This document shows, piece after piece, positions 32,481 to 53,905 of a stretch of DNA of 64,000 bases (position 1 is its first letter; each line of letters opens with the position of its first letter). The notes beneath the pieces are model-generated. The model was not told the origin of the DNA. It was given only the letters and a program-made list of their open reading frames with translations, and made no database searches. This DNA is from Hormiphora californensis (taxonomy: Eukaryota > Animalia > Ctenophora). The translations under genes were made by a program, and so were the position numbers. The stretch covers positions 248,001 to 312,000 of the forward strand of contig CM035360.1 of assembly GCA_020137815.1 (NCBI GenBank), written 5' to 3'.

Positions 32481-34043
32481 AGAACCCTGTAGCGAAATTC
32501 TGTTTTTAAAGAGTAGCGAAATTTCTTAGACGTAGTAGCGAAATGCTGTTAGACTAGTACGAAAGCTGTTTTGAAGTATAGCGAAATGCGGGTTTTAAAG
32601 TGTAACGAAATGCGTTGACCCAGTACGAAAAGCTGTTTGACGTAGTAGAAAATGCTGTTTGAAAGTACAAAAAATAGTACACAAACCCCCCATGATCCCC
32701 TTTTAAAATCCCATTATTAGGGTTGTTAGCCCGCAATATTTATCCGAAATATGTCTAGAATTCCCATGAACATCACTAATTATCACTCAATGTCAGCAGG
32801 AGTGTGTCTCATTATTGTCTGTGAGATGATAATAAGTCATACTCCTGCTAAGTAGAGCTACATTGCGGACACACAGTGTCCTGTGTCAGGAAACTGTGTT
32901 CTCCTGACTCCTGTGTCATGCGACTCAAAAGTAGAGCTGTTGACACTGTTCTCTGTTTAAAACCCCTCTCACTACTGCTGCAGCTGTACAATGGGTGGTG
33001 TGTGTGTCTAAAATCGATCAAGGTTAAACCGGTATAATTGCTCTGTGCTCTCTGCTCAGTGCTCTCTATGTTGGGGGTTTCTCAGTAAAAGTGCACTGAC
33101 AATATTCCTGGTTCTTTTGTCACATTGAATCGAGTATTGTTGTCCCCTTTTATATTAGGGTGTTTAATAACGTTTTATGTTAAGGAATGGGTCACATTTG
33201 ACATGTGGTTTAACACATTAGAGAGACATTAGAGAGAGAGAGAGAACTTGACCGTGGAAGGAACGTGAGAGAAGAAGAACCACACTGTGTGTCAAAGCAC
33301 ATGATCACGCGGCGTTGTGTGCATAACAAATGTAGCGCGCGGTCGATGTGCGCGCTAAAACTATACAAAGCTCACTATCTTCAGCAGTAGTCATAACACA
33401 CTGGATCTCTTGTCAGCGCTTTCAGCCGGGTTGGGATATGTCTTGATCACTTGACTTGTCCAGGATATAAATCGATAGGATTAGATTTTCCTGCTGATTA
33501 TGACCAGTTAGTACCATTGTCCACTTCCTAATATTTCAATGGGATTCCAATTTACAATTGATCCAGACAACCGATGCTATGTCACTTTATCACATCCAAT
33601 TTATAGTTAACTATTCTTTTCCATCGACTTGTAGACTTGTAGACTTGTAGACTTGTAGACTGGTGAGTTCATCCATATGTGGGGGGGGGGGGCCTGCCGC
33701 AAAAATCTCAGCTACCCTCTTTTCGGCCGATGAGATTTTTGAGATTTTTGGGAAAATTTGCTCAATTACGTTTGAGATTTTTGTGGTAAATTGGCACAAT
33801 TTTGGCTGCCAATACTCAGTTTTTCGACATATTTTTAGCTTAAAACTGAATCATAATAGCAGTTTAGTAATTTAAATAGGTAGATTTCATGTTTTAGCTT
33901 CACATTAACTTTTGTACTAGAACACAAGGAAAATTTCTATTCAGAATTTTGATTTTTGGTAGAAAAACACAAGGATTGTTTCTATTCCAAATTTTCGAAT
34001 GAAAATTTTTCCTTTCTATGAGATTTTTGAGAAAAATTTGCGG

Positions 34044-34085
34044 GTTTCAAACTTTTCAACACTACTTTAAACAAATTAATTTGAG
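34044..34085 (+). other. Retroposed spliced-leader-like sequence forming the 5' end of the LINE
   Basis: GTTTCAAACTTTTCAACACTACTTTAAACAAATTAATTTGAG matches, from memory, the ctenophore trans-spliced leader ending AATTTGAG. It starts at the insertion junction and is followed by TT, not a GT donor. Confidence 0.8.
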
Positions 34086-34124
34086 TTTCAGAAAGCCATG
34101 TACAAGTGACCACCCCTGGAAACT

Positions 34125-36191
34125 ATGACTGAAGCCAAGGAGAAAGCTATCCTGGGGAAGCAGAAGGCTATCCTGTCAGAGCTAAGTAAGGATTCTGATT
34201 GTGGTGATGAGGTTAAGCGAGTCCTGAAGGCCTACAACCCGGCAGCAAAGAAATATCAGACCAACCTGAACAACCTGGATAAGTTTGATGCCCCCGTTCT
34301 GGAGGAGGCCGCTGTTTTCCTGGGAGGTAAGCCCCGGACCGACGATGGTGTCAGCATAAGGTACCGTAGCAAATCTAGCCTCATTGACTGGCTAATCATG
34401 GCTATCGAGGGTCTCTTCCCTCAGTTTTGCGAGGCCTGTGAGTTAGATTACTCATTGAAACGAGGAGAAAAATCCAGGTTTAACTGCAGTAGCTGTGGTG
34501 GTGGTAGCCACAACTGCCACCTAATCCAGGAGCAGCCTAAGTGTAGTGTCCCTGGTTTTGTTTGGATTTGCTCAGGCTGTATGAAAAAGAACAGACTGGA
34601 AACTTTCTCTGGCGAAAACGGGGAGTTTGCCAGTCCTCCTAAAAGTGCAGCTAGTGAGGCAAATGATGACAGTTTGAGGAGGAAGTTCAGTTTCTTGTCG
34701 ACGGCTGACTCAGCCGCTGAGGTTAGCGAGAAACCAGGGGAGGTGACCACAACCGGTGATAAGAAGGAACTACCCAAGGAAAAAGAGAAACAGATCGATA
34801 GTGAGTCAGACAAACCAATTCCAGTGTGCCAGCAATACCTTCAACATCGCTGCAAGCATGGTCGTGCTGGAACAAAGTTGGTCAACGGAGTTGCTTGCCA
34901 GAAGTCACACCCTCCACTGTGCCGGAAGTACTGCTCACACGGATCTATGAAGAAGTACGGATGTCAGCTGGGTAAGGAATGTCGATATTTCCACCCACCC
35001 CTGTGTCGTTCCTCACAGTTCAGTCATCAATGTCTCAAGACCGACTGTCGTTTTCAACATCTGAGGAACACACGTCGTGCTCCTGCCAACGTGAAGGGAA
35101 ATAACACCCAGCCAACCGACGTGGGTAGGCCGAGAACCATGTCATCCTATGCTACAATAACTACGGATAGTAGTACTAATATGCCACGGTCCCAGCAGCC
35201 GAGCTCCAATGCAGCACGTGAGCCAGCCCCATTTGGGGGGGGGCCGGCTGAAGTTTTTGAAGTTTGAAGTTTTCCACCCTACTTTTTGAGTTTTTGAAGT
35301 TTTTGAAGTTGACTTCAAAAACTTCAAAAACTTCAAAAACTCTAAAATACTTTTATATGCTATCAGTGACTATTATTACACTTGTTTAGGTTAGTTTCAT
35401 GCTTAATACATATTGTGGCAAAGTTATCCGTCCTTGTCTTCCCTTTTTCTACCACAAATTAGGATATTTACAATGATTCCTAGCCATGAAATCCATGGCA
35501 CAATTTGGTGTAAAAAATTTAAATTTTTTGTAAAAACAGATTTTATTTTCATTCTATAACTCAAAAAATTGCCTAGAAAATGCTAAGAAAGTGTTTAAAA
35601 GTTATGAAGTAAATTTTCAAAAAAATTTTTTGGGGCCACACCCTTTTTGCCAGTCTCACAAAATGCAAATTTTTTATGAAGGGAGTAGTGAAAAAAATAT
35701 GGACACCAAAATCATCAGCGGCCTCGAGTTAGTGGGGGTACGTGCCAAAATGAAGTCTCCACCTCATCTAATTCTAGGGATAATGGGATATTTTCATAAT
35801 TTTGTGTGTGCGCATGACTTTTTTTGGGCTAGACCAGTTTTAATGGTTTATGAGTGACTATAGGCTTTTTAAAGGGGTGCATCTTGTTCGGAATATGCAA
35901 GTTTATATAAGAGTTATGAAGCAACATAGGGCCTATCTCCAACGGTTTAGGAGATATGAGTTTTTGAAGTTTTTGAAGTTTTTGAAGTTTTCCACCCTAA
36001 GTTTCGCTTTGAAGTTTTTGAAGTTGACTTCAAAAACTTCAAAAACTTCAGCCGGCCCCCCCCCCCCCCCATTTGATGAGCAGGCTTTTTTCGAAAGACT
36101 CTTGGGTGCGATGGATGCGAGAATGGACGCGAAAATGAGAGAAATGCTAGACGTGAGACTAGAACCGAGACGAACGTGGAGGGATCGTTAG
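34125..36191 (+). CDS. LINE ORF1p with PHD finger and three CCCH-type zinc fingers (408 aa after removing the MITE; segments 34125-35234 and 36075-36191)
   Basis: CEAC...CSSCGGGSHNC...WICSGC; CQQYLQHRC...CQKSH, CRKY...C.....CRYFH, CRSS.....C....CRFQH. Excision gives in-frame ...REPAPF|DEQAFFER...WRDR*. Confidence 0.88.
35235..36066. mobile_element. MITE with poly-G/poly-C termini and (gaagttttt)n subterminal repeats, inserted in ORF1
   Basis: Gn-ccggctgaagtttttgaag ... cttcaaaaacttcagccgg-Cn; (cccc)attt(g) duplicated on both sides. Confidence 0.9.
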
Positions 36192-36502
36192 GGCCTGTTT
36201 CGCCTACGAGCAAGCTGTTACTGCTTAACGCAAGGAGCTTAAGTCCAGCAGGTGATACAGGCTGGAAACTCGGTCTTATAAGAGACTATGTTACGCAAGA
36301 GAAAACTCCCATAGTAGCCATTGCAGTAACTGAGACTTGGTTTAAGGGTTATCATTCTGATGCTCAGGTTCAGATACCAGGGTATGACGTATATAGAAGT
36401 GATAGAGAAAACCGAGTTGGCGGAGGCTGTGCCTTATATGTTCAATGTTCGCTGGCTGTTTCTGACAGTATATATTTTGCGAGTGCGAATAACAATATGT
36501 GT

Positions 36503-38158
<1,656 letters not shown>

Positions 38159-39775
38159 ATATGTGTGCTGTCTATGTTGAACAAATAAACACTATTTATG
38201 CTGCTGTGTATCGCTCCGAGTCAAGTGTGTTAGACTTTCAAAAGCTGATGGACAATTTACAGACTTTTATAGATAAACACAGTGATGGACGATTATCAGA
38301 GGTCGTAATTTCTGGGGATTTTAATCTTCCTCTTTTTCAGTGGTCTGATGGCTCGTCTGTCCCGGTTGATCAGCCTAACTACAATGTTGTTGCTGATTTC
38401 ATGGACGCAAACTTTCTATCCCAAGTTGTTGAGGGCCCTACAAGAGGCAACAACACGCTAGACCTTGTGTTTACCAACCGTCCAGAATATTTCAGCGATA
38501 TTGTTATTACGGATGGGGGTATCTCGGACCATTCCTGGGTATCATGTGAACTATCTTTCAATCCTCTCGGTCCTAAAAGTTTATTTCTTCCCAGTACACT
38601 TGAGGGTTATCGTCAATTGGATCTTCAGTCAGCTGACTTCACTAGTATTGATGCGGAACTAGCGGCTACTGATTGGGATCGAATGTTGACGGAATGTGAA
38701 GAACTGGGAGACGAGGATGGTTCCCTTTTTGTGGAGGCCATGCGTGACAAAGTGTTCAAAGTTGTAAAGTCACACTGTCGGTTGAAGAAAATCAGGAAAG
38801 AGTTTGTGGACAAAGAACTGAAACACTTAACCAGCAGGAGACGGAAATTGGTTAAACGAAAGGACGATTCAAACAAATGGAAGTCACTGATGGACTGTAT
38901 TATTGGAAGGATAAAGGACCATTTGATATCAAGGGACAAGAAGGCAGAGAGGAAGGCTGTCGACGTAATTAAAGAAAACCCGAAGTACTTTTATTCACAC
39001 GTCAAGAGGAAATCAAAGGTTAAATCTTCAGTTGCACCCCTTGAGCGTGAAGATGGTTCACTAACTGTGGATCCTCAAGAGAAGGCTGGATTACTCCAAC
39101 ACCAGTTTTCCAGCGTTTTTAGCGACCCTTCCGCTATCGACCCCGCAGAGGCAGCTGGTAACGTGGAGGACCTTGGGGAGATCCTGACAAGTTTGGAGTT
39201 TTCCCAGGAATGTATCCAGACTGGCTTGAAGGAACTTAAGCCATTCTCAGCATCCCCTCCTGACTGCATTCCTTCTTTTGTTCTGAAACAGTGCAGCAGT
39301 AGCCTGGCATACCCGATTTGGATGTTGTGGAACAGGTCATTTGAAGACGGATCTGTCCCTAGTTGCTTAAAGCAACAGTTCATAACACCATTATTCAAGA
39401 AGGGGGCTAAATCGAAACCTGTGAACTATCGCCCAGTGTCTATAACAAGTCACCTGTCTAAAGTGTTTGAGCGGCTGGTGAGGAAACGGATCAGTGACTA
39501 CTTGGACGAGATGGAGTTGCAGAGTGACACTCAGCATGGGTTTAGGAAGGGGCGCAGTACGATGACACAGCTACTAACCCATGTTGACATCATCCTATCT
39601 GATCTATGCGGTGATCAGGAAGTCGATGCTATCTACTTAGATTTTAGTAAAGCATTTGATTCCGTGGATATCAATGTATTGCTAGCTAAATTGAGGCGAT
39701 ATGGTATTGGAGGTCAACTCCTTCAGTGGATCAGTGCGTGGATCCTGGGCAGGAATCAGTGTGTAATGGTGGATG

Positions 39776-40147
39776 GGTAGGCGGTAAATGTTAACCAGAT
39801 CTGAGAGAAAACGTACGTGCAAAACTACGTTTTTGCCCATAACTCAGCCATTTCTTGACCAATTTGCAAGATCTTGGGTGCGTTGGAAAGAGGACATTGA
39901 GATCTTTCAAATGAGCCCAATAAAACTAAAATCGGCGGAAAATGCGCGGCGTCATGGCGCAAAATGCGCGTTTTCGCCACCACGCCGCGCAATTTGCGCC
40001 AATTTTCATTTTCTTGAGCTCATTTGAAAGATCTCAATGTCCTCTTTCCAATGAGCCAAGGATTTTGCAAATTGGTCAAGAAATGGCTGAGTTATGGGCA
40101 AAAACGTGCGAAATTCTCACAGATCTGGTTAACATTTACCGCCTACC
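39776..40147. mobile_element. Palindromic MITE, GG termini, 9-bp TSD (Mutator-like), inserted in the RT domain
   Basis: TIR ggtaggcggtaaatgttaaccagatctg; TSD tggtggatg at 39767-39775 and 40148-40156. Confidence 0.9.
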
Positions 40148-41481
40148 TGGTGGATGGAGTGAGGTCACCCTGGGCCGAGGTACTTAGTGGGGTTGCCCAG
40201 GGTAGTGTGCTCGGACCACTTCTTTTCCTCATATATATTCTTGACCTGGAGTCAGTGCTAGACGGTAGCATGTGTCTAACTTTTGCTGACGATACTAAGT
40301 TGGTAAAAGCTATTTCAGATATGTCTAGCCAGGCGTGCCTACAGAACGATCTTTTAAGTGTGGCAGAATGGGCAAAGAAGAACAATATGAAGTTACATGA
40401 GGATAAATTTCAGCTCTTGAGCTATAGTCTGAATAAGTCTGCTATCCTCAGACAGTTTCCTTTCGCAGCTGAAGTGTTTTCATATACTACAAGCTCAGGT
40501 GTGCAGTTGACCCCCGAACCTGATGTTCGTGATCTGGGTGTCCAGATGTCTGCAGATGGGTCATGGACGAGGCACATTTCTATCATAGTGCGGAAGGCTT
40601 CCCTCTTGAGTGGCTGGATATTCAGCGTTTTTTCGGGACCGTTCTCCGGAGGTTATGGTACAGCTTTTCAAGTCCTTGGTCAGGCCTATTCTTGAGTACT
40701 GTTGCCTAGTCTGGAATCCTTCCAAGGCTGGTGATATCAAGGCTATTGAGAATGTCCAACGTTGTTTCACCAGACGTCTTGATGGTATGCAGGGTCATGA
40801 CTATTGGGATAGACTGAAATTGCTCAATCTTATGTCCCTTCAGCGTCGGAGACAGCGCTACATTCTGATTCATGTGTGGAAGACGATTCATGGTTTTGTA
40901 CCTAACTCTGCCAACCTAGTATTTCAACAGCACGCTAGACTGGGTATGCGGATAGTCCCACCACCTTACCCCTATAGAGCAGAAACGAAAAGAGCTAATC
41001 AATTTCACTGCTCATTTGGTCCAAGAGCAGCTCATTTATGGAACACTCTACCTGCTGCTGTCAATTCTTGTGTGAGCTTGAATCAGTTCAAATCATCATT
41101 GGGCAATTACTTGACAGGATTTCACGATCGTCCTCCAGTCAGAGGGTACCCGCCACTTCCAAATGACCTTTCGCCTCAATGTGCTGTGCTGTGCTGATGA
41201 GTGTGAGTGTGAGGGATAGTTTTTCAACTTGATTTTATTTAGGTGGACCCATTCAGGGAAGGCCTGTTTCTTTATAAATAAAACTTTAATTGTAAACTTG
41301 TAAACTTGTAAACTTGTTTTCCCTGAAAAATCGCAAATTTGCCTCAAAAATCTCAAAAATCCCACGTTTTTTAGCCAAAAATCGAAAATCTCAAAAATCC
41401 CAGCTACCCTGAAAATCGCCAATGAGGCATGAGGTTCTTGCGGCAGGCCCCCCCCCCCCCCCCCCCCCCATATGTATATAT

Positions 41482-42830
41482 CACGGCGTGCCTGGTGAAA
41501 TTTTAACACGACCTAGCATGCTGCGGGAAACCACCACTTGTACGTGGTAGCTGAGGGTCTACAGAATGGCGCTACGGTGCGGGAAAAAACATTCCATTGC
41601 CTAAAAAAATTTTTTTTACGCTTTTTTGATTTGGGTCAAAATTGGGTATATTAAACGTGGTCCCGAAAAATCCATAATGACTTAGCACACGAAATATGTC
41701 ACCCCCACCTATTTTTGCACGTAGAATCGATTGCCGTTGAAGTCGAATCTCTAAAATGACTGTAAAATGGTCAAAAGTTGATTTTTTTACCATTTTTTGG
41801 AGGTTTTTGGCCCCTAAACCATTGAAAACGTTGAGATAGGAATTTGGAACTAGTGCCAATCGTTAAAATGGTCATTTTTCTACCAAGAACCAAGTTTTCG
41901 TGTATATCCGATTTATGGTTAGATTTGGGCAAATTGTTGAAATCTGCCAACTAGGAGAACCGTAACTTGATTTTTTCCTTTTTTTATATTTTGGCATTTT
42001 TGACAAACTTCGGATTGAAATGGCCAGTCGGGACCATGCTTAAGTTGTTTATGGGACAATTTCCGACTAAAATCCAAGATTTCATACCAATCCAATAACA
42101 GATCGTTGATTTATAGAAAATTTAAGTAGGCAAAACGGTCAAAATAAGCAAGAAAAGTTGTTATTTTGACCATTTTGCCTACTTAAATTTTCTATAAATC
42201 AACGATCTGTTATTGGATTGGTATGAAATCTTGGCCTTGGATTTTAGTCGAAAATTGTCCCATAAACAACTTAAACATGGTCCCGACTGGCCATTTCAAT
42301 CCGAAGTTTGTCAAAAATGCCAAAATATAAAAAAGGAAAAAATCAAGGTACGGTTCTCCTAGTTGGCAGATTTCAACAATTTGCCCAAATCTAACCATAA
42401 ATCGGATATACACGAAAACTTGGTTCTTGGTAGAAAAATGACCATTTTAACGATTAGCACTAGTTTCAAATTCCTATCTCAACGTTTTCAATGGTTTAGG
42501 GGCCAAAAACCTCCAAAAAATGGTAAAAAATCAACTTTTGACCATTTTACAGTCATTTTAGAGATTCGACTTCAACGGCAATCGATTCTACGTGCAAAAA
42601 TAGGTGGGGGTTACATATTTCGTGTGCTAAGTCATTATGGATTTTTCGGGACTACGTTTAGTATACCCAATTTTGACCCAAATCAAAAAATGGTAGAAAA
42701 AATTTTTTTAGGCAATGGAATGTTTTTTCCCGCACCGTAGCGCCATTCTGTAGACCCTCAGCTACCACGTACAAGTGGTGGTTTCCCGCAGCATGCTAGG
42801 TCGTGTTAAAATTTCACCAGGCACGCCGTG
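41482..42830. mobile_element. 1.35-kb near-perfect palindromic foldback, CAC...GTG termini, 4-bp ATAT flanks (Chapaev-like)
   Basis: cacggcgtgcctggtgaaattttaacacgacc... mirrored at the right end; ~665-bp arms with ~13-bp spacer near 42148-42160. Confidence 0.88.
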
Positions 42831-43194
42831 ATATAGGAATTCTTTATACTAATATTTTATAGCTAGAGACTATGCTATAGTTCTTGAAGTCAGGCCACAC
42901 CTGCCCTAGTGACCGATTCAACGCAGGAGCTGTTCTATTCTTTTTCAGTAGGGCGGGGCCTCATCGCCATAATTTTGTTGTTGTTTAATGGGGGGGGGGC
43001 TTGCTAAAGAGGAGAAGAAACTGCTATTTTCTCCCAACTTTCGGCTATCGAAGGAGAGCAAGAACCACTTGTAAACAGAGAGGAATCTAGCAATTGTAAT
43101 TGTGCAACTAATAGTTGCCAACTAAGAGAGCCAAGGAGAATTCGGGGGAATCAGATGCTAACCTCCATGACAGAGTAGCTGCTGGCTGACAATT

Positions 43195-44936: not shown

Positions 44937-45560
44937 GTATATCATACCCTATAAGGTAAAAGGTAAAAGGTGCTGTATATATAATAAGGTAAAAGTTTGG
45001 TATTGTCGGTACACTGTAGGCAGGGACTTTAGCCTAAGGTTTAGGGGCTGATGGGACTGGGTCTCTGGGCCCTGGCGGCATGAAGTTCTTATCAGTTATG
45101 ACCAGAGTCCCTTGTTTTAGGGAGTCTGCTTAATGTTTTATCATTTGTCTCTGCTCCAAATTCAATCACATATTGTTTGATACTACATCTGCATATGTGC
45201 TGCTACTGCTAGTGCTATTAATATTCCTGATTCAACTTCTTCATTCAACTTTATGATTCCTTATTCTCTATTTGATCCATTTCCACGTTGCAGAAGCTGC
45301 TTCATTTGATATGTTGCACTGTAGGCTACTACACTATAGTATCTGAAAAGTTACTCCACCGTAAGTAGGATATTGAACAAGGGTCAAACGCAGGATTTTA
45401 ACGTTTTTCCGTACGGCTTCTTCAGAAACTGAACTCAAATTAATTTAAAGTAGTGTTGAAGAAACGGCGAAACGTCAAAATCCCGCGTTTGACCCTTGTT
45501 CAATATCCTATAGGATAGGCCTACTCACGGCGGAGTAACTTTTCAGCTACTATAGTGTAG

Positions 45561-46971
45561 CTGAAGGTGCTCGTCACCTAGGTGCTTCCATAGGATCTGA
45601 GACCTTCAAGCAAACATTTGTTTCTGCTGCAGTTTCCAAATGGTGCGTTGAGCTGGAAAATCTTGTGGCTATTGCCAAAGCCCATCCTCATTTGGCGTAC
45701 AGCAACTTTGTGAGAAGCTTCCGATTCAAGTGGGCCTTTCTCCAGCGAACAGTTCCAGACATCAGTGATCTGTTTGATCCGCTTGAACACACCATCCGTT
45801 CACAGTTGATTCCATGTCTGGTGGGCCGTCAAGTGTCCGACCTAGAACGGGAGATACTGGCACTCCCCTCTGGGAAAGGTGGAATGGGAATTGAGAACCC
45901 CGTCAAAACCTCTGACAGATCATACAGCAACTCCCGAGCATTGACGAAGCCCCTTGTTGATTTGATACTATGCCGTAACGAAGAAGAAATAGAAATGGCT
46001 CTAGTGGAGAAGAATGCAAGAGAGGCAAGGAACAAGATAGCAAAGGAGAATGAGGACCACCACTCAGACACTCTCAAAGAGTTACTCACTAGAATCAGAT
46101 GCCCAAAGCTAGTGAGATGTCTAGAGCTCGCTGGAGAGGCCGGAGCATCTGTATGGCTCACGGCAACACCCTACCCTCACCTGGGCTTCGAACTGAATCA
46201 ATTGGAATTCGTCGACTCAGTGGCACTGCGATACGGGTTTGAGGTCAAAGATTTGGGCGCGACATGCGTATGTGGAAAACCAAACAATGCGGACCATACC
46301 TTGTCCTGTTCAACCGGGGGCTATTCCATCCTCCGTCACGACAACATCAGGGACCTAATGGCGGAGATATGCTCGTATGCGGGCCTCAAAGGTGTGGAAA
46401 CAGAGAAGCTACTTCTCCCTTGTCCGGACGGCATACACTTTCACCCTTCGGCAAACACAGCCCCTGATGCAAGGATGGATGTGGTCGCACTTGACATGTG
46501 GCGAAAAATGCAGCTGGCTCATATGGATGTGCGAATTTTCCATGCCAATTCGCCCTCCTATATCGACACGCCCCTCGACCAACTCTACCGAAGAAACGAG
46601 GCTAGCAAGAAGCAGTCGTACGGAAAACGTGTACGAGAAGTTGAAGGGGGTGCCTTCTCTCCGCTGGTTATGAATACAGCAGGTGGAATAGCCAATGAGT
46701 TCCAAAAGGTGCTAAAGACTCTCTCACACCGAATCTCCACAAGAACCGGAGAACCGTATAGTGAAGTTATGGCGCACCTGAGGACGAGAATACGATTCTC
46801 CCTCCTGAGATCATGCCTTATTGCATTAAGAGGAAATCGGAGGAAGATTGCTATCACTAGTCTAACAAATACTGAACTGGTGACCTGAGGAAGAGAGGAA
46901 TGAGAAGAACTTGAGGATCCGAGGATGATTTGATCCGAGGATGAATTGATTTATTGTTTTGTTTCTTTCTT
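45561..46971 (+). mobile_element. 5'-truncated CRE-like non-LTR retrotransposon with 15-bp TSD
   Basis: TSD gctactatagtgtag at 45546-45560 and 46972-46986; empty site at ~53729-53743; T-rich 3' end. Confidence 0.88.
45665..46888 (+). CDS. C-terminal part of CRE-like ORF: RT thumb region, CCHC finger, restriction-like endonuclease
   Basis: LP..KGGMG; GASVWL; CVCG-x6-H-x3-C; RHDNIRD; RMD; DVRI; KKQSY; FSPLV...AGG. The frame continues upstream (HLGASIG). Confidence 0.85.
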   Translation: MAIAKAHPHLAYSNFVRSFRFKWAFLQRTVPDISDLFDPLEHTIRSQLIPCLVGRQVSDLEREILALPSGKGGMGIENPVKTSDRSYSNSRALTKPLVDLILCRNEEEIEMALVEKNAREARNKIAKENEDHHSDTLKELLTRIRCPKLVRCLELAGEAGASVWLTATPYPHLGFELNQLEFVDSVALRYGFEVKDLGATCVCGKPNNADHTLSCSTGGYSILRHDNIRDLMAEICSYAGLKGVETEKLLLPCPDGIHFHPSANTAPDARMDVVALDMWRKMQLAHMDVRIFHANSPSYIDTPLDQLYRRNEASKKQSYGKRVREVEGGAFSPLVMNTAGGIANEFQKVLKTLSHRISTRTGEPYSEVMAHLRTRIRFSLLRSCLIALRGNRRKIAITSLTNTELVT

Positions 46972-48250: not shown

Positions 48251-49945
48251 AAAAGGGCAGCCGCCAGCTAATGATTACCTTGAACGGAATTCTCTTTTGG
48301 GCAAGCACCAGTCTGGTTATCGTGTTGGGCACAGCTGTGAAACTCTGTTAGCCAGCATGTTTGATGATGTATTAGGCGAGATGGATAAAGGAAATGTAGT
48401 GGCTCTCATTGTTTTGGACATGAGTGCTGCATTTGATACAGTGGATCATCGAAAGTTGTTGGAGGTGTTGCAGAATCGGTTGGAGTTGATGGCGATCCTC
48501 TTCAATGGTTTAAGAGCTACCTGAGTTCCAGATCTTCAGAGTCTCTGTGGGTGATTTGTCTTTCGGAAACCCTGGCCTTACTATGTGGAGTACCCCAGGG
48601 GTCCCTTCTTGGTCCAATTTTGTTTCTACTATACATTGAAGCTGTGCACATTGTGGAGCCTTATGGTCTTCGGATAAACATACGCGGATGACTCCCAGCT
48701 CTATGTGAGTCTGGTTCCTACGGTTTCTACTGGCTGGTCGGAGGCAAAGGTGGATATTGAGGAATGTCTGGCAAAGGTGAAGAGGTGGATGGTAGGACAG
48801 TGGTTGAAGTGCAACGAGGCTAAGACAGAATTCATCCTCCTTGGAAAACGCAGTTCGTTAAGTAAAGTCACTTTCGATCCAGTAATCAACTTCGGTGGAA
48901 CTGAAATCTTCCCTAGTGAATGTAGTGGAACAGATGGTAAGACACTAGGAATCTCTTGGATCACAATCTAAATCTTGAACGACAGGTTAATAATGGGAGG
49001 AACAGTGTGGACTGATATTACGGAATCTTTGGCAATTACACAAGTGTTTTGATGTTACAACAAAGATCATGTTGGTGAAACAGTTGATCATTTCCAGAAT
49101 TGATTACAGCAATATTTGTATTGTGGACTTCCTGGCCGAGTTCTGAGCGGGCTCCAGAAACTTCTCAATGCCTGTGTTTCGATTTGTATTTAACCTCCAT
49201 GGACACCAGGACAACTATATGGAGTATTTCAGGCAGTGTCATATTTTACCGATCTCCTACAGGCTGGACTTCAAGCCTGTTGATTGCCTATAAAATAGTC
49301 ATGGAACAGCCCCGTGTTATCTCCAGGATTTGGTGCCACGTGATGAGACTTGGGAACCTCTAGGACTACGAGGATGACTAATGTTCCGGATCCCTATAGG
49401 TTAAAACATCCAAAGATGACCAGTATTAATGCCAACTCTAAGTTGAGACGTAGGAGGTTATCGTATTCCTGCCTTCTGTCTGGAATGAGCTCCCTTGAGC
49501 TCAGGTCAATCCCCAACGTGGAAACCTTCAAAACCCGGCTGAAAACACATCCTTCGTTGGTGCATTTGGAGTGGGTGATGGGGAACCCATGGCTGAGTTG
49601 TAATGTTTTTTGTAGTTGTGGGGCCTGCGGGCAATCAGTGTCATCCTCTCTCTAGCCATGTTATTATTTCACTACCTAGTATCCTTTTTCCTAGCAGGTG
49701 TAAGTAAGTGTTTTTGAATTTATATCCAGGTTTATGGGACCAGTTATTCCTTCAGTTTTATAAGTCCAGTTAGTTTAGTCTTACAATATCTGTTCTTTTT
49801 TCACCAGAGTGTTCGTGTGTGTCATATATTTAATCGAGGATATCCCGCTCTGATGACTCGTCGGAGCATTGCCAATATTTGACATGTTTCCGTCGGGTAT
49901 GGGCGGTATATAAGCGCGGAATATTATTATATATATTATTTTATT
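48250..49945 (+). mobile_element. 5'-truncated, frameshifted L2-clade LINE
   Basis: HQSGYRVGHSCET, LDMSAAFDTVDH, GVPQGSLLGPILF, YADDSQLY, KTEFILLG, FKTRLKTH; AT-rich tail. Confidence 0.85.
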
Positions 49946-50222
49946 AGATTTCATGTTTTAGCTTCACATTAACTTTTGTACTAGAACACAAGGAATATTC
50001 TATTCAGAATTTTGATTTTGGTAGAAAAACACAAGGATTGTTTCTTTCCAAATTTTCGAATGGAAATTTTTCCTTTTTATGAGATTTTTGAGAAAAATTT
50101 GCGGGTTTTCCCTGAAAATCGGAAATTTGCTCAAAAATCCCACGTTTTTTAGCCAAAAATCGAAAATCTCAAAAATCCCAGTACCTGAAAATCGCCAATG
50201 AGGCATGAGTTCTTGCGGCAGG
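49946..50222 (+). mobile_element. Partial second copy of the host MITE, lacking the CR1 insertion (empty site)
   Basis: Continuous match to 33882-34047 joined directly to 41317-41447. Confidence 0.88.
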
Positions 50223-52929: not shown

Positions 52930-53905
52930 ATAAATAAATAAATATTATATGCTAGTACTTTTAGACGCCGTCTAGCAGAAAAGGTAGTACTTAGTAGGGT
53001 ATAATACCCGGTATATCCCTGTATGGCGGCGCCCATACCCCAATTTGATTCTCGACAGTGCGCTCAGATGGGGTCGGCGGCGCCAGACAGGTATATCCTA
53101 CCCTATAAGGTAAAAGGTAAAAGGTGCTGTATATATATAATAAGGTAAAAGTTTGGTACTGTCGGTACACTGTAGGCAGGGACTTTAGCCTAAGGTTTAG
53201 GGGCTGATGGGACTGGGTCTCTGGGCCCTGGCGGTATGAAGTTCTTATCAGTTATGACCAGAGTCCCTTGTTTTAGGGAGTCTGCTTAATGTTTTATCAT
53301 TTGTCTCTGCTCCAAATCCAATCACATATTGTTTGATACTACATCTGCATATGTGCTTCTACTGCTAGTGCTATTAATATTCCTAATTCAACTTCCTAAT
53401 TCAACTTCCTGATTCAACTTTATGATTCCTTATTCCACGAGCTCTATTTGATCCATTTCCACGTTCCACAAGCTGCTACATTTGATATGTTGCAATGTAG
53501 CCGTACTATAACACTATAGTATCTGGAAAGTTACTCCGCCGTGAGTAGTAGGATATTGAACAAGGGTCAAACGCAGGATTTTAACGTTTTTCCGTACGGC
53601 TTCTTCAGAAACTGAACTCAAATTAATTTAAAGTAGTGTTGAAGAAACGGCGAAACGTCAAAATCCCGCGTTTGACCCTTGTTCAATATCCTATAGGATA
53701 GGCCTACTCACGGCGGAGTAACTTTTCAGCTACTATAGTGTAGTAGCCTACAGTGCAACATGTCGTTGATCCCCGCCCTGGTCGCCACCACAATCATTGC
53801 TTCATTTGAGTTCGAATCGAACTCACTAGCCCCGTGCGTCCTCTCCTAGAATACTCGCCAGTTCTATTATTCTGCAGGGCGTCGGCTTGTAATCTTGTAA
53901 TCTTG

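Follow-up and report, generated by a model that had tools for sequence, protein, structure and literature searches.

A LINE must rebuild its full 5′ end in each new copy. Some non-LTR elements, i.e. SLACS, CZAR and CRE, are specific for spliced-leader genes. NeSL elements likewise insert into leader genes and carry a restriction-like endonuclease (excerpts of PMC4640811). In dinoflagellates, retrogenes carry relic leaders and are re-spliced inside the old leader, which is described as DinoSL/DinoRL recycling (excerpts of PMC12014239). Leaders are present on approximately 30% of the Iso-Seq reads of Hydra transposable element transcripts (excerpts of PMC12220107), and six transposon or retrotransposon genes of Schistosoma mansoni hold the leader in their DNA, a case for which the authors leave assembly chimeras open (excerpts of PMC5832876). 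In R2 and Perere-3, ribozymes cleave the co-transcripts and thereby define the 5′ end of the element (excerpts of PMC8501958).

Analysis of a 64,000-nt stretch of the Hormiphora californensis genome (contig CM035360.1, referred to here as the window) revealed a LINE whose 5′ end is a copy of the host spliced leader. Features of this locus are summarized in Table 1. The 42-mer at the 5′ end of the element had been recognized as the ctenophore leader, and this identification proved correct: window positions 34044-34085 are identical at 42 of 42 sites to nt 3-44 of the printed 44-nt H. californensis leader (PMC8527503), a match with a chance expectation of about 1e-19 within the window. The sequence 3′ of the leader opens with TT at 34086, contains no GT donor and leads over 39 nt to the ORF1 ATG at 34125, exactly as first read. 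An SL RNA gene is distinguished by a GT donor and an intron behind the leader; behind 34085 there is TT instead.

Contigs from six of the 18 listed public sequencing runs were compared with the window, their depth not being a copy number. In run X2, a GT donor opens the consensus built from 34 other contigs downstream of 34085. The RNA contigs of runs X7 and X18 (the latter taken to be RNA by guess) exit the leader into unlike sequences, which places the leader on the 5′ ends of unrelated mRNAs, as the initial annotation had expected. The same is indicated by the published data, with the leader found on 56% of H. californensis Iso-Seq reads and in 718 copies in the genome (excerpts of PMC8527503).

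Table 1. Positions of the LINE, its component parts and the related host element within the window.
Feature	Positions	Strand	Basis
Host foldback (MITE-like) element, LINE inserted inside	33681..41467	.	8-bp duplication at 33673 and 41468
LINE 5′ end, a retroposed copy of nt 3-44 of the published spliced leader	34044..34085	+	Sequence match
Conserved head block with acceptor-like TTTCAG, 3-codon upstream ORF and CACCC box; putative promoter or RNA element	34086..34121	+	Conservation against L001
Upstream mini-ORF, ATG-codon-AAG-stop	34098..34109	+	L001 keeps ATG, AAG and stop (TAA for TGA); single comparison, a lead
ORF1 (approximately 410 aa in relatives), conserved Cys/His clusters with PHD-like and CCCH-like spacing; split by insertion 1	34125..36191	+	Homologue alignment
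Nested insertion 1, terminal inverted repeats	35236..36066	.	9-bp target duplication, 35227-35235 and 36067-36075
ORF2, apurinic-type endonuclease and reverse transcriptase; split by insertions 2 and 3, frame change near 40625-40650	36176..41197	+	Pfam Exo_endo_phos_2 and RVT_1; tblastn pieces
Nested insertion 2	36504..38158	.	9-bp target duplication, 36495-36503 and 38159-38167
Nested insertion 3, palindromic	39776..40147	.	9-10-bp target duplication at 39767 and 40148
Tail at the 3′ end, an 8-nt unit in triplicate without poly(A)	41291..41317	+	
Empty paralogue of the host foldback element, without leader	49945..50222	+	Junction 50101-50114

The insertion site could be defined with the aid of an empty paralogue located further along the window, the junction of which begins at 50101. 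The paralogue aligns with both flanks of the LINE, with 96% identity on the left (33881-34047 against 49945-50108) and 97% on the right (41352-41447 against 50130-50222). Because it matches both flanks yet has no leader, the leader came in with the LINE insertion, in agreement with the initial annotation. The motif GTTT occurs at both insert ends (34044-34047 and 41316-41319), and the 5′ junction is therefore fixed only to 34044-34048, the interval originally given. GTTT may represent either a target duplication of 4 bp or the initial bases of the leader itself, and the microhomology joining suggested earlier is indistinguishable from a 4-bp duplication.

Several other repeats surround the locus. 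Just upstream of the host foldback element (33627-33658) there are four copies of an 8-nt unit, one base off the LINE tail unit, which are perhaps the tail of a related LINE; no ORF2 match was found upstream of these repeats. A 1.37-kb near-perfect palindrome (96%; 41477-42835) lies immediately behind the foldback element. On the minus strand, two identical 32-nt shortened leader relics (45434-45465 and 53617-53648) were identified in the loop of a palindromic MITE-like element. Both are followed by TTCAG and neither by a donor. A non-LINE repeat carries the leader too. The window also contains a 334-aa ORF without a Pfam match (45884-46888) and a fragment of another reverse transcriptase (48273-48640).

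When the three nested insertions are subtracted, the LINE is approximately 4.4 kb long. It had been described as full-length; both ends are indeed present, but the element is not intact. With three nested insertions and a frame change this copy is dead, and its ORFs being broken in this manner, it cannot be a master. The ORF1 methionine at 34125 lines up with the first methionine in 13 of the 15 homologues, the other two being N-terminally partial. Those homologues that carry a species name come from Pleurobrachia bachei in the case of ORF1 and from Mnemiopsis leidyi in that of ORF2. There is no Pfam family for the ORF1 protein: zf-CCCH_4 was recorded in two of 16 members at E 0.007, and the Cys/His pattern is conserved but none of the 16 has a PHD match.

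The endonuclease and reverse transcriptase of ORF2, together with ORF1, the repeat tail and the empty site, identify the element as a non-LTR retrotransposon of the apurinic-endonuclease type. Like CR1-group LINEs, it has two ORFs, a cysteine-rich ORF1, an endonuclease and reverse transcriptase, and a 3′ tail of short tandem repeats; in the CR1 comparison, it shows 30% identity to a bird protein. This anatomy and the bird match suggest the CR1 group, a tentative placement based on anatomy. A host leader as the 5′ end is not known as a feature of this group.

A search of metagenome contigs with the ORF1 alignment revealed two loci, L001 and L002, among 41 candidate stretches. None was found among 34 candidate stretches of viral contigs, and a leader pattern search gave no matches in the viral contigs or in the genome contigs collection. 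L002 has a repeat array in place of its 5′ end and is uninformative on the head. L001 is a LINE with ORF1 and the beginning of ORF2. Its ORF1 shares 42% identity with that of the window LINE in the best segment and about 48% over the whole alignment (160 of 331 residues), and the fourfold sites agree at 22 of 62 positions. The leader of L001 (352-393) is identical to the window leader at all 42 sites and starts at the same base in an unrelated flank. The initial annotation had suggested counting the copies that begin with the leader; the same head was found in this distant family as well as in the DNA-run contigs described below, and the leader head is, as judged from these matches, a trait of the lineage common to a distant LINE family.

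The resemblance to NeSL, SLACS, CZAR and CRE elements lies in a LINE adjoining leader sequence (for NeSL, excerpts of PMC4640811). Unlike NeSL, SLACS and CRE, the window LINE has an Exo_endo_phos_2 domain and not a restriction-like endonuclease, and it carries the leader to unrelated sites. Neither of the two copies that could be placed is an insertion in a leader gene: the window copy lies in the foldback element and L001 in another flank.

Behind the leader, the 36-nt block of the window is identical to L001:394-429 at 32 of 36 sites, against 22 of 62 fourfold sites in ORF1. Leader and block together are apparently an old head under selection, and the block may be a promoter or an RNA element. 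The initial annotation regarded the element as promoter-less. As these 36 nt are conserved far beyond silent sites and could themselves be a promoter or RNA element, that claim is disfavoured under every mechanism considered. No second copy of the block was found in the window at a threshold of at least 22 of 36 identical sites. An Rfam search with the head gave eight matches, all far below the gathering score, and no ribozyme family was matched. Folding produced weak and dissimilar structures in the two families (-5.6 and -9.7 kcal/mol, calculated with no shuffle control), and no RNA structure is claimed. A Pol III promoter in the head was rejected by reasoning only, T runs being present inside the leader.

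The conservation of the leader (42 of 42 sites) also differs from that of the adjacent block (Fisher p 0.041, or 0.007 on the assumption of equal rates of change in leader and block); this is a comparison of one pair over 78 sites, and strong selection on a fixed leader would produce the same picture. Given these values and the fourfold sites, the leader seems to behave as if it were swapped in from the host pool.

The junction between leader and element was followed in the DNA runs X1, X3 and X4, in which the interval 34070-34140 is covered by 40 contigs (10, 5 and 25, respectively), 21 of which were listed. Exact-match contigs pass unbroken from the leader into the element in each run: 34072-34127 in X1 (depth 320), 181 nt from 34072 in X3 (depth 515) and 34072-34119 in X4 (depth 1033). 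A six-difference contig assumed to represent a single locus has depths of 71, 208 and 346, which the exact junction exceeds by a factor of approximately 2.5 to 4.5; X3 may be the run from which the window DNA derives. The block is also present in further contigs with 3-6 differences, which diverge from the window sequence at 34114-34120 and need not be LINEs. Two related blocks are preceded by apparently shortened leader forms. In one contig of X4 (depth 175), 6 nt are missing at 34084, as in a leader joined behind TTTCAG; this form is not present in X1 or X3 and could be slippage between two similar hexamers. At 34044 the leader exits into unlike flanks in 19 contigs of X4 and 35 of X2, which need not be LINEs. 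The contigs break at the leader and so do not show the sequence upstream of other copies.

Within 34070-34140, the depth in X4 climbs from approximately 1000 near the junction up to 3567 by 34130. In this run the element also exceeds its flank in depth far more than it does in X2; a library bias is the likely cause, at least in part. Two X4 joints (34063-34587 and 34393-34472) were disregarded because one side was short. One X2 contig joins ORF1 at 34503 to the leader start at 34045 with 14 letters between them, and is perhaps a leader-headed insert within another copy.

Parts of ORF1 are covered by the RNA run X7. There is no RNA depth at 34120-34146 in X7 or X18, and neither an unspliced precursor nor a spliced head was seen in their contigs; the missing cover in this region does not speak against expression. 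One joint, represented by a single X18 contig of depth 4.8 whose shorter arm measures 28 letters, links the end of the leader to 34308 in ORF1, behind a GAG; neither X4 nor X2 shows it. Element RNA may have been trans-spliced here with GAG as the acceptor, or the template may have been switched at the three shared letters.

The presence of the leader on the copied RNA is close to certain. The template of reverse transcription would have been a capped, leader-bearing RNA, with synthesis reaching within 2 nt of the published leader start. We propose that a genomic copy headed in this way would be transcribed from upstream by read-through, possibly aided by the conserved block as a promoter element. 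The old leader would then fall in the discarded outron, and its terminal AG would accept a fresh leader, regenerating the same capped unit-length RNA. Occasional use of TTTCAG as the acceptor would give a head shorter by 6 nt. Renewal by trans-splicing would explain why the leader stays identical to that of the host while the block drifts, why related blocks carry varied leader forms, and how the 6-nt-short form arose; the common start base of the window copy and L001 in unrelated flanks also speaks for it, as do the unbroken junction contigs, the X18 joint and the leader splicing described for Hydra transposons and dinoflagellate retrogenes. On the other side stand the RNA contigs, none of which spans the head. 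The weak point of the model is the acceptor, as the terminal GAG of the leader is required to beat TTTCAG located 6 nt downstream, two sites that the initial annotation did not distinguish. GAG is a poor 3′ splice site, while TTTCAG fits the usual consensus. Preferred use of TTTCAG would delete the first 6 nt of the block at once, yet both families keep them, which counts against renewal.

The window thus holds a dead copy of a ctenophore LINE lineage with leader and 36-nt block as its head. Re-supply of the leader by trans-splicing in successive rounds of retrotransposition is the mechanism that we favour among those considered, although the arguments for and against it appear to us evenly balanced. 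More tentatively, and with slightly more doubt than conviction, we suggest that the lineage renews its 5′ end at the last AG of the leader in each cycle, the block tuning this step or starting upstream transcription.

This proposal resembles dinoflagellate recycling in that a leader copied into DNA marks the reverse transcription of a trans-spliced RNA, the dinoflagellate copy being re-spliceable at an AG of the old leader (excerpts of PMC12014239). As described in the same excerpts, the dinoflagellate cargo consists of host genes and the relics are stacked behind the new leader, whereas here the element is autonomous and a conserved block follows the leader. With the final AG of the leader as the acceptor proposed here, no such stack would form. 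Among the joints listed for four runs none connects one leader to another, which also counts against re-splicing, and the sole match to the leader start is a stub of 5 nt following the leader. As in R2 and Perere-3 (excerpts of PMC8501958), a defined 5′ end would be obtained from a longer transcript, but the host spliceosome would both trim the RNA and add the cap, and no ribozyme family matched the head. Hydra and S. mansoni likewise provide examples of transposon RNAs that use host leader splicing; unlike the ctenophore case, the excerpts on these two hosts describe no LINE families whose genomic 5′ junction holds a fixed leader (PMC12220107 and PMC5832876).

A leader captured only once, by an ancestor, is an unlikely but by no means negligible alternative. 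Leader and block would then constitute a fixed internal promoter and 5′ UTR, transcription would begin on the initial bases of the leader, and fresh splicing would be unnecessary. The retention of TTTCAG in both families is expected if it is unused as an acceptor, and the strongly conserved block holds a CACCC box. At the leader/element junction, the 8-mer 34083-34090 matches the published leader exactly over its nt 1-8, which would fit an old capture history. The Ascaris leader exon has internal promoter elements. A promoter role of the retroposed leader has also been proposed for dinoflagellates (excerpts of PMC12014239). These points are opposed by the 42 leader sites, all unchanged although the block acquired four changes and silent sites approach saturation, by the identity of the leader with the current main leader of the host, and by the occurrence of related blocks behind different leader forms.

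It is improbable that active masters reside inside SL RNA genes at the exon end in the manner of target-specific elements, borrowing the snRNA promoter and cap, and that their co-transcripts insert elsewhere as leader-headed copies. Such an arrangement would account for an up-to-date leader and a kept TTTCAG without splicing, and the upstream regions of other copies are invisible in the contigs, the leader exceeding the contig word in length. Insertion of site-specific non-LTR elements into spliced-leader exons is known (excerpts of PMC4640811). However, those leader-targeting elements use a restriction-like endonuclease and the window LINE is of the apurinic type; moreover, the window copy and L001 both lie in unrelated flanks, and there is no GT donor behind the 3′ end of the window copy.

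Still less probable, and in our opinion very doubtful, is a leaderless master whose own promoter, outron and acceptor yield a trans-spliced RNA, the leader-headed copies being dead-end daughters. This is the ordinary route for trans-spliced genes, and a single non-leader entry at 34105 in X1 (depth 52), as well as the rise in X4 depth across 34090-34100, could be taken in its favour. The search for such a master, suggested in the initial annotation, revealed none in three DNA runs: of the 13 loose-end rows of X1, X3 and X4, none falls at 34084-34091, the place expected for a leaderless (outron) branch, contigs being prone to drop rare variants. The junction contigs are unbroken over 34084-34089 in all three runs and to at least 34127 in two of them, with no loose end there, and each divergent family would need its own hidden master. 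A one-off chimera, formed by a template switch between SL RNA or mRNA and LINE RNA, or an assembly artefact is hardly credible, since, although small-RNA/LINE chimeras are known in mammals, the same junction occurs in three DNA runs at several times the presumed single-locus depth and also in L001, a member of a distant family on an independent metagenome contig.

Among the full-text papers searched, no report of leader-headed LINE families in ctenophores was found. If renewal by trans-splicing is true, host trans-splicing would be a third answer to the 5′-end problem of LINEs, beside internal promoters and self-cleaving ribozymes. If it serves a lineage old enough to saturate its silent sites, it would provide a precise, capped and host-like 5′ end from any upstream transcription. 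Leader variants tag whether the leader of an RNA came from its own locus. The finding bears on the nature of the hundreds of genomic leader copies in ctenophores: if the proposal is true, part of the 718 copies in H. californensis would be LINE heads and not SL RNA genes.
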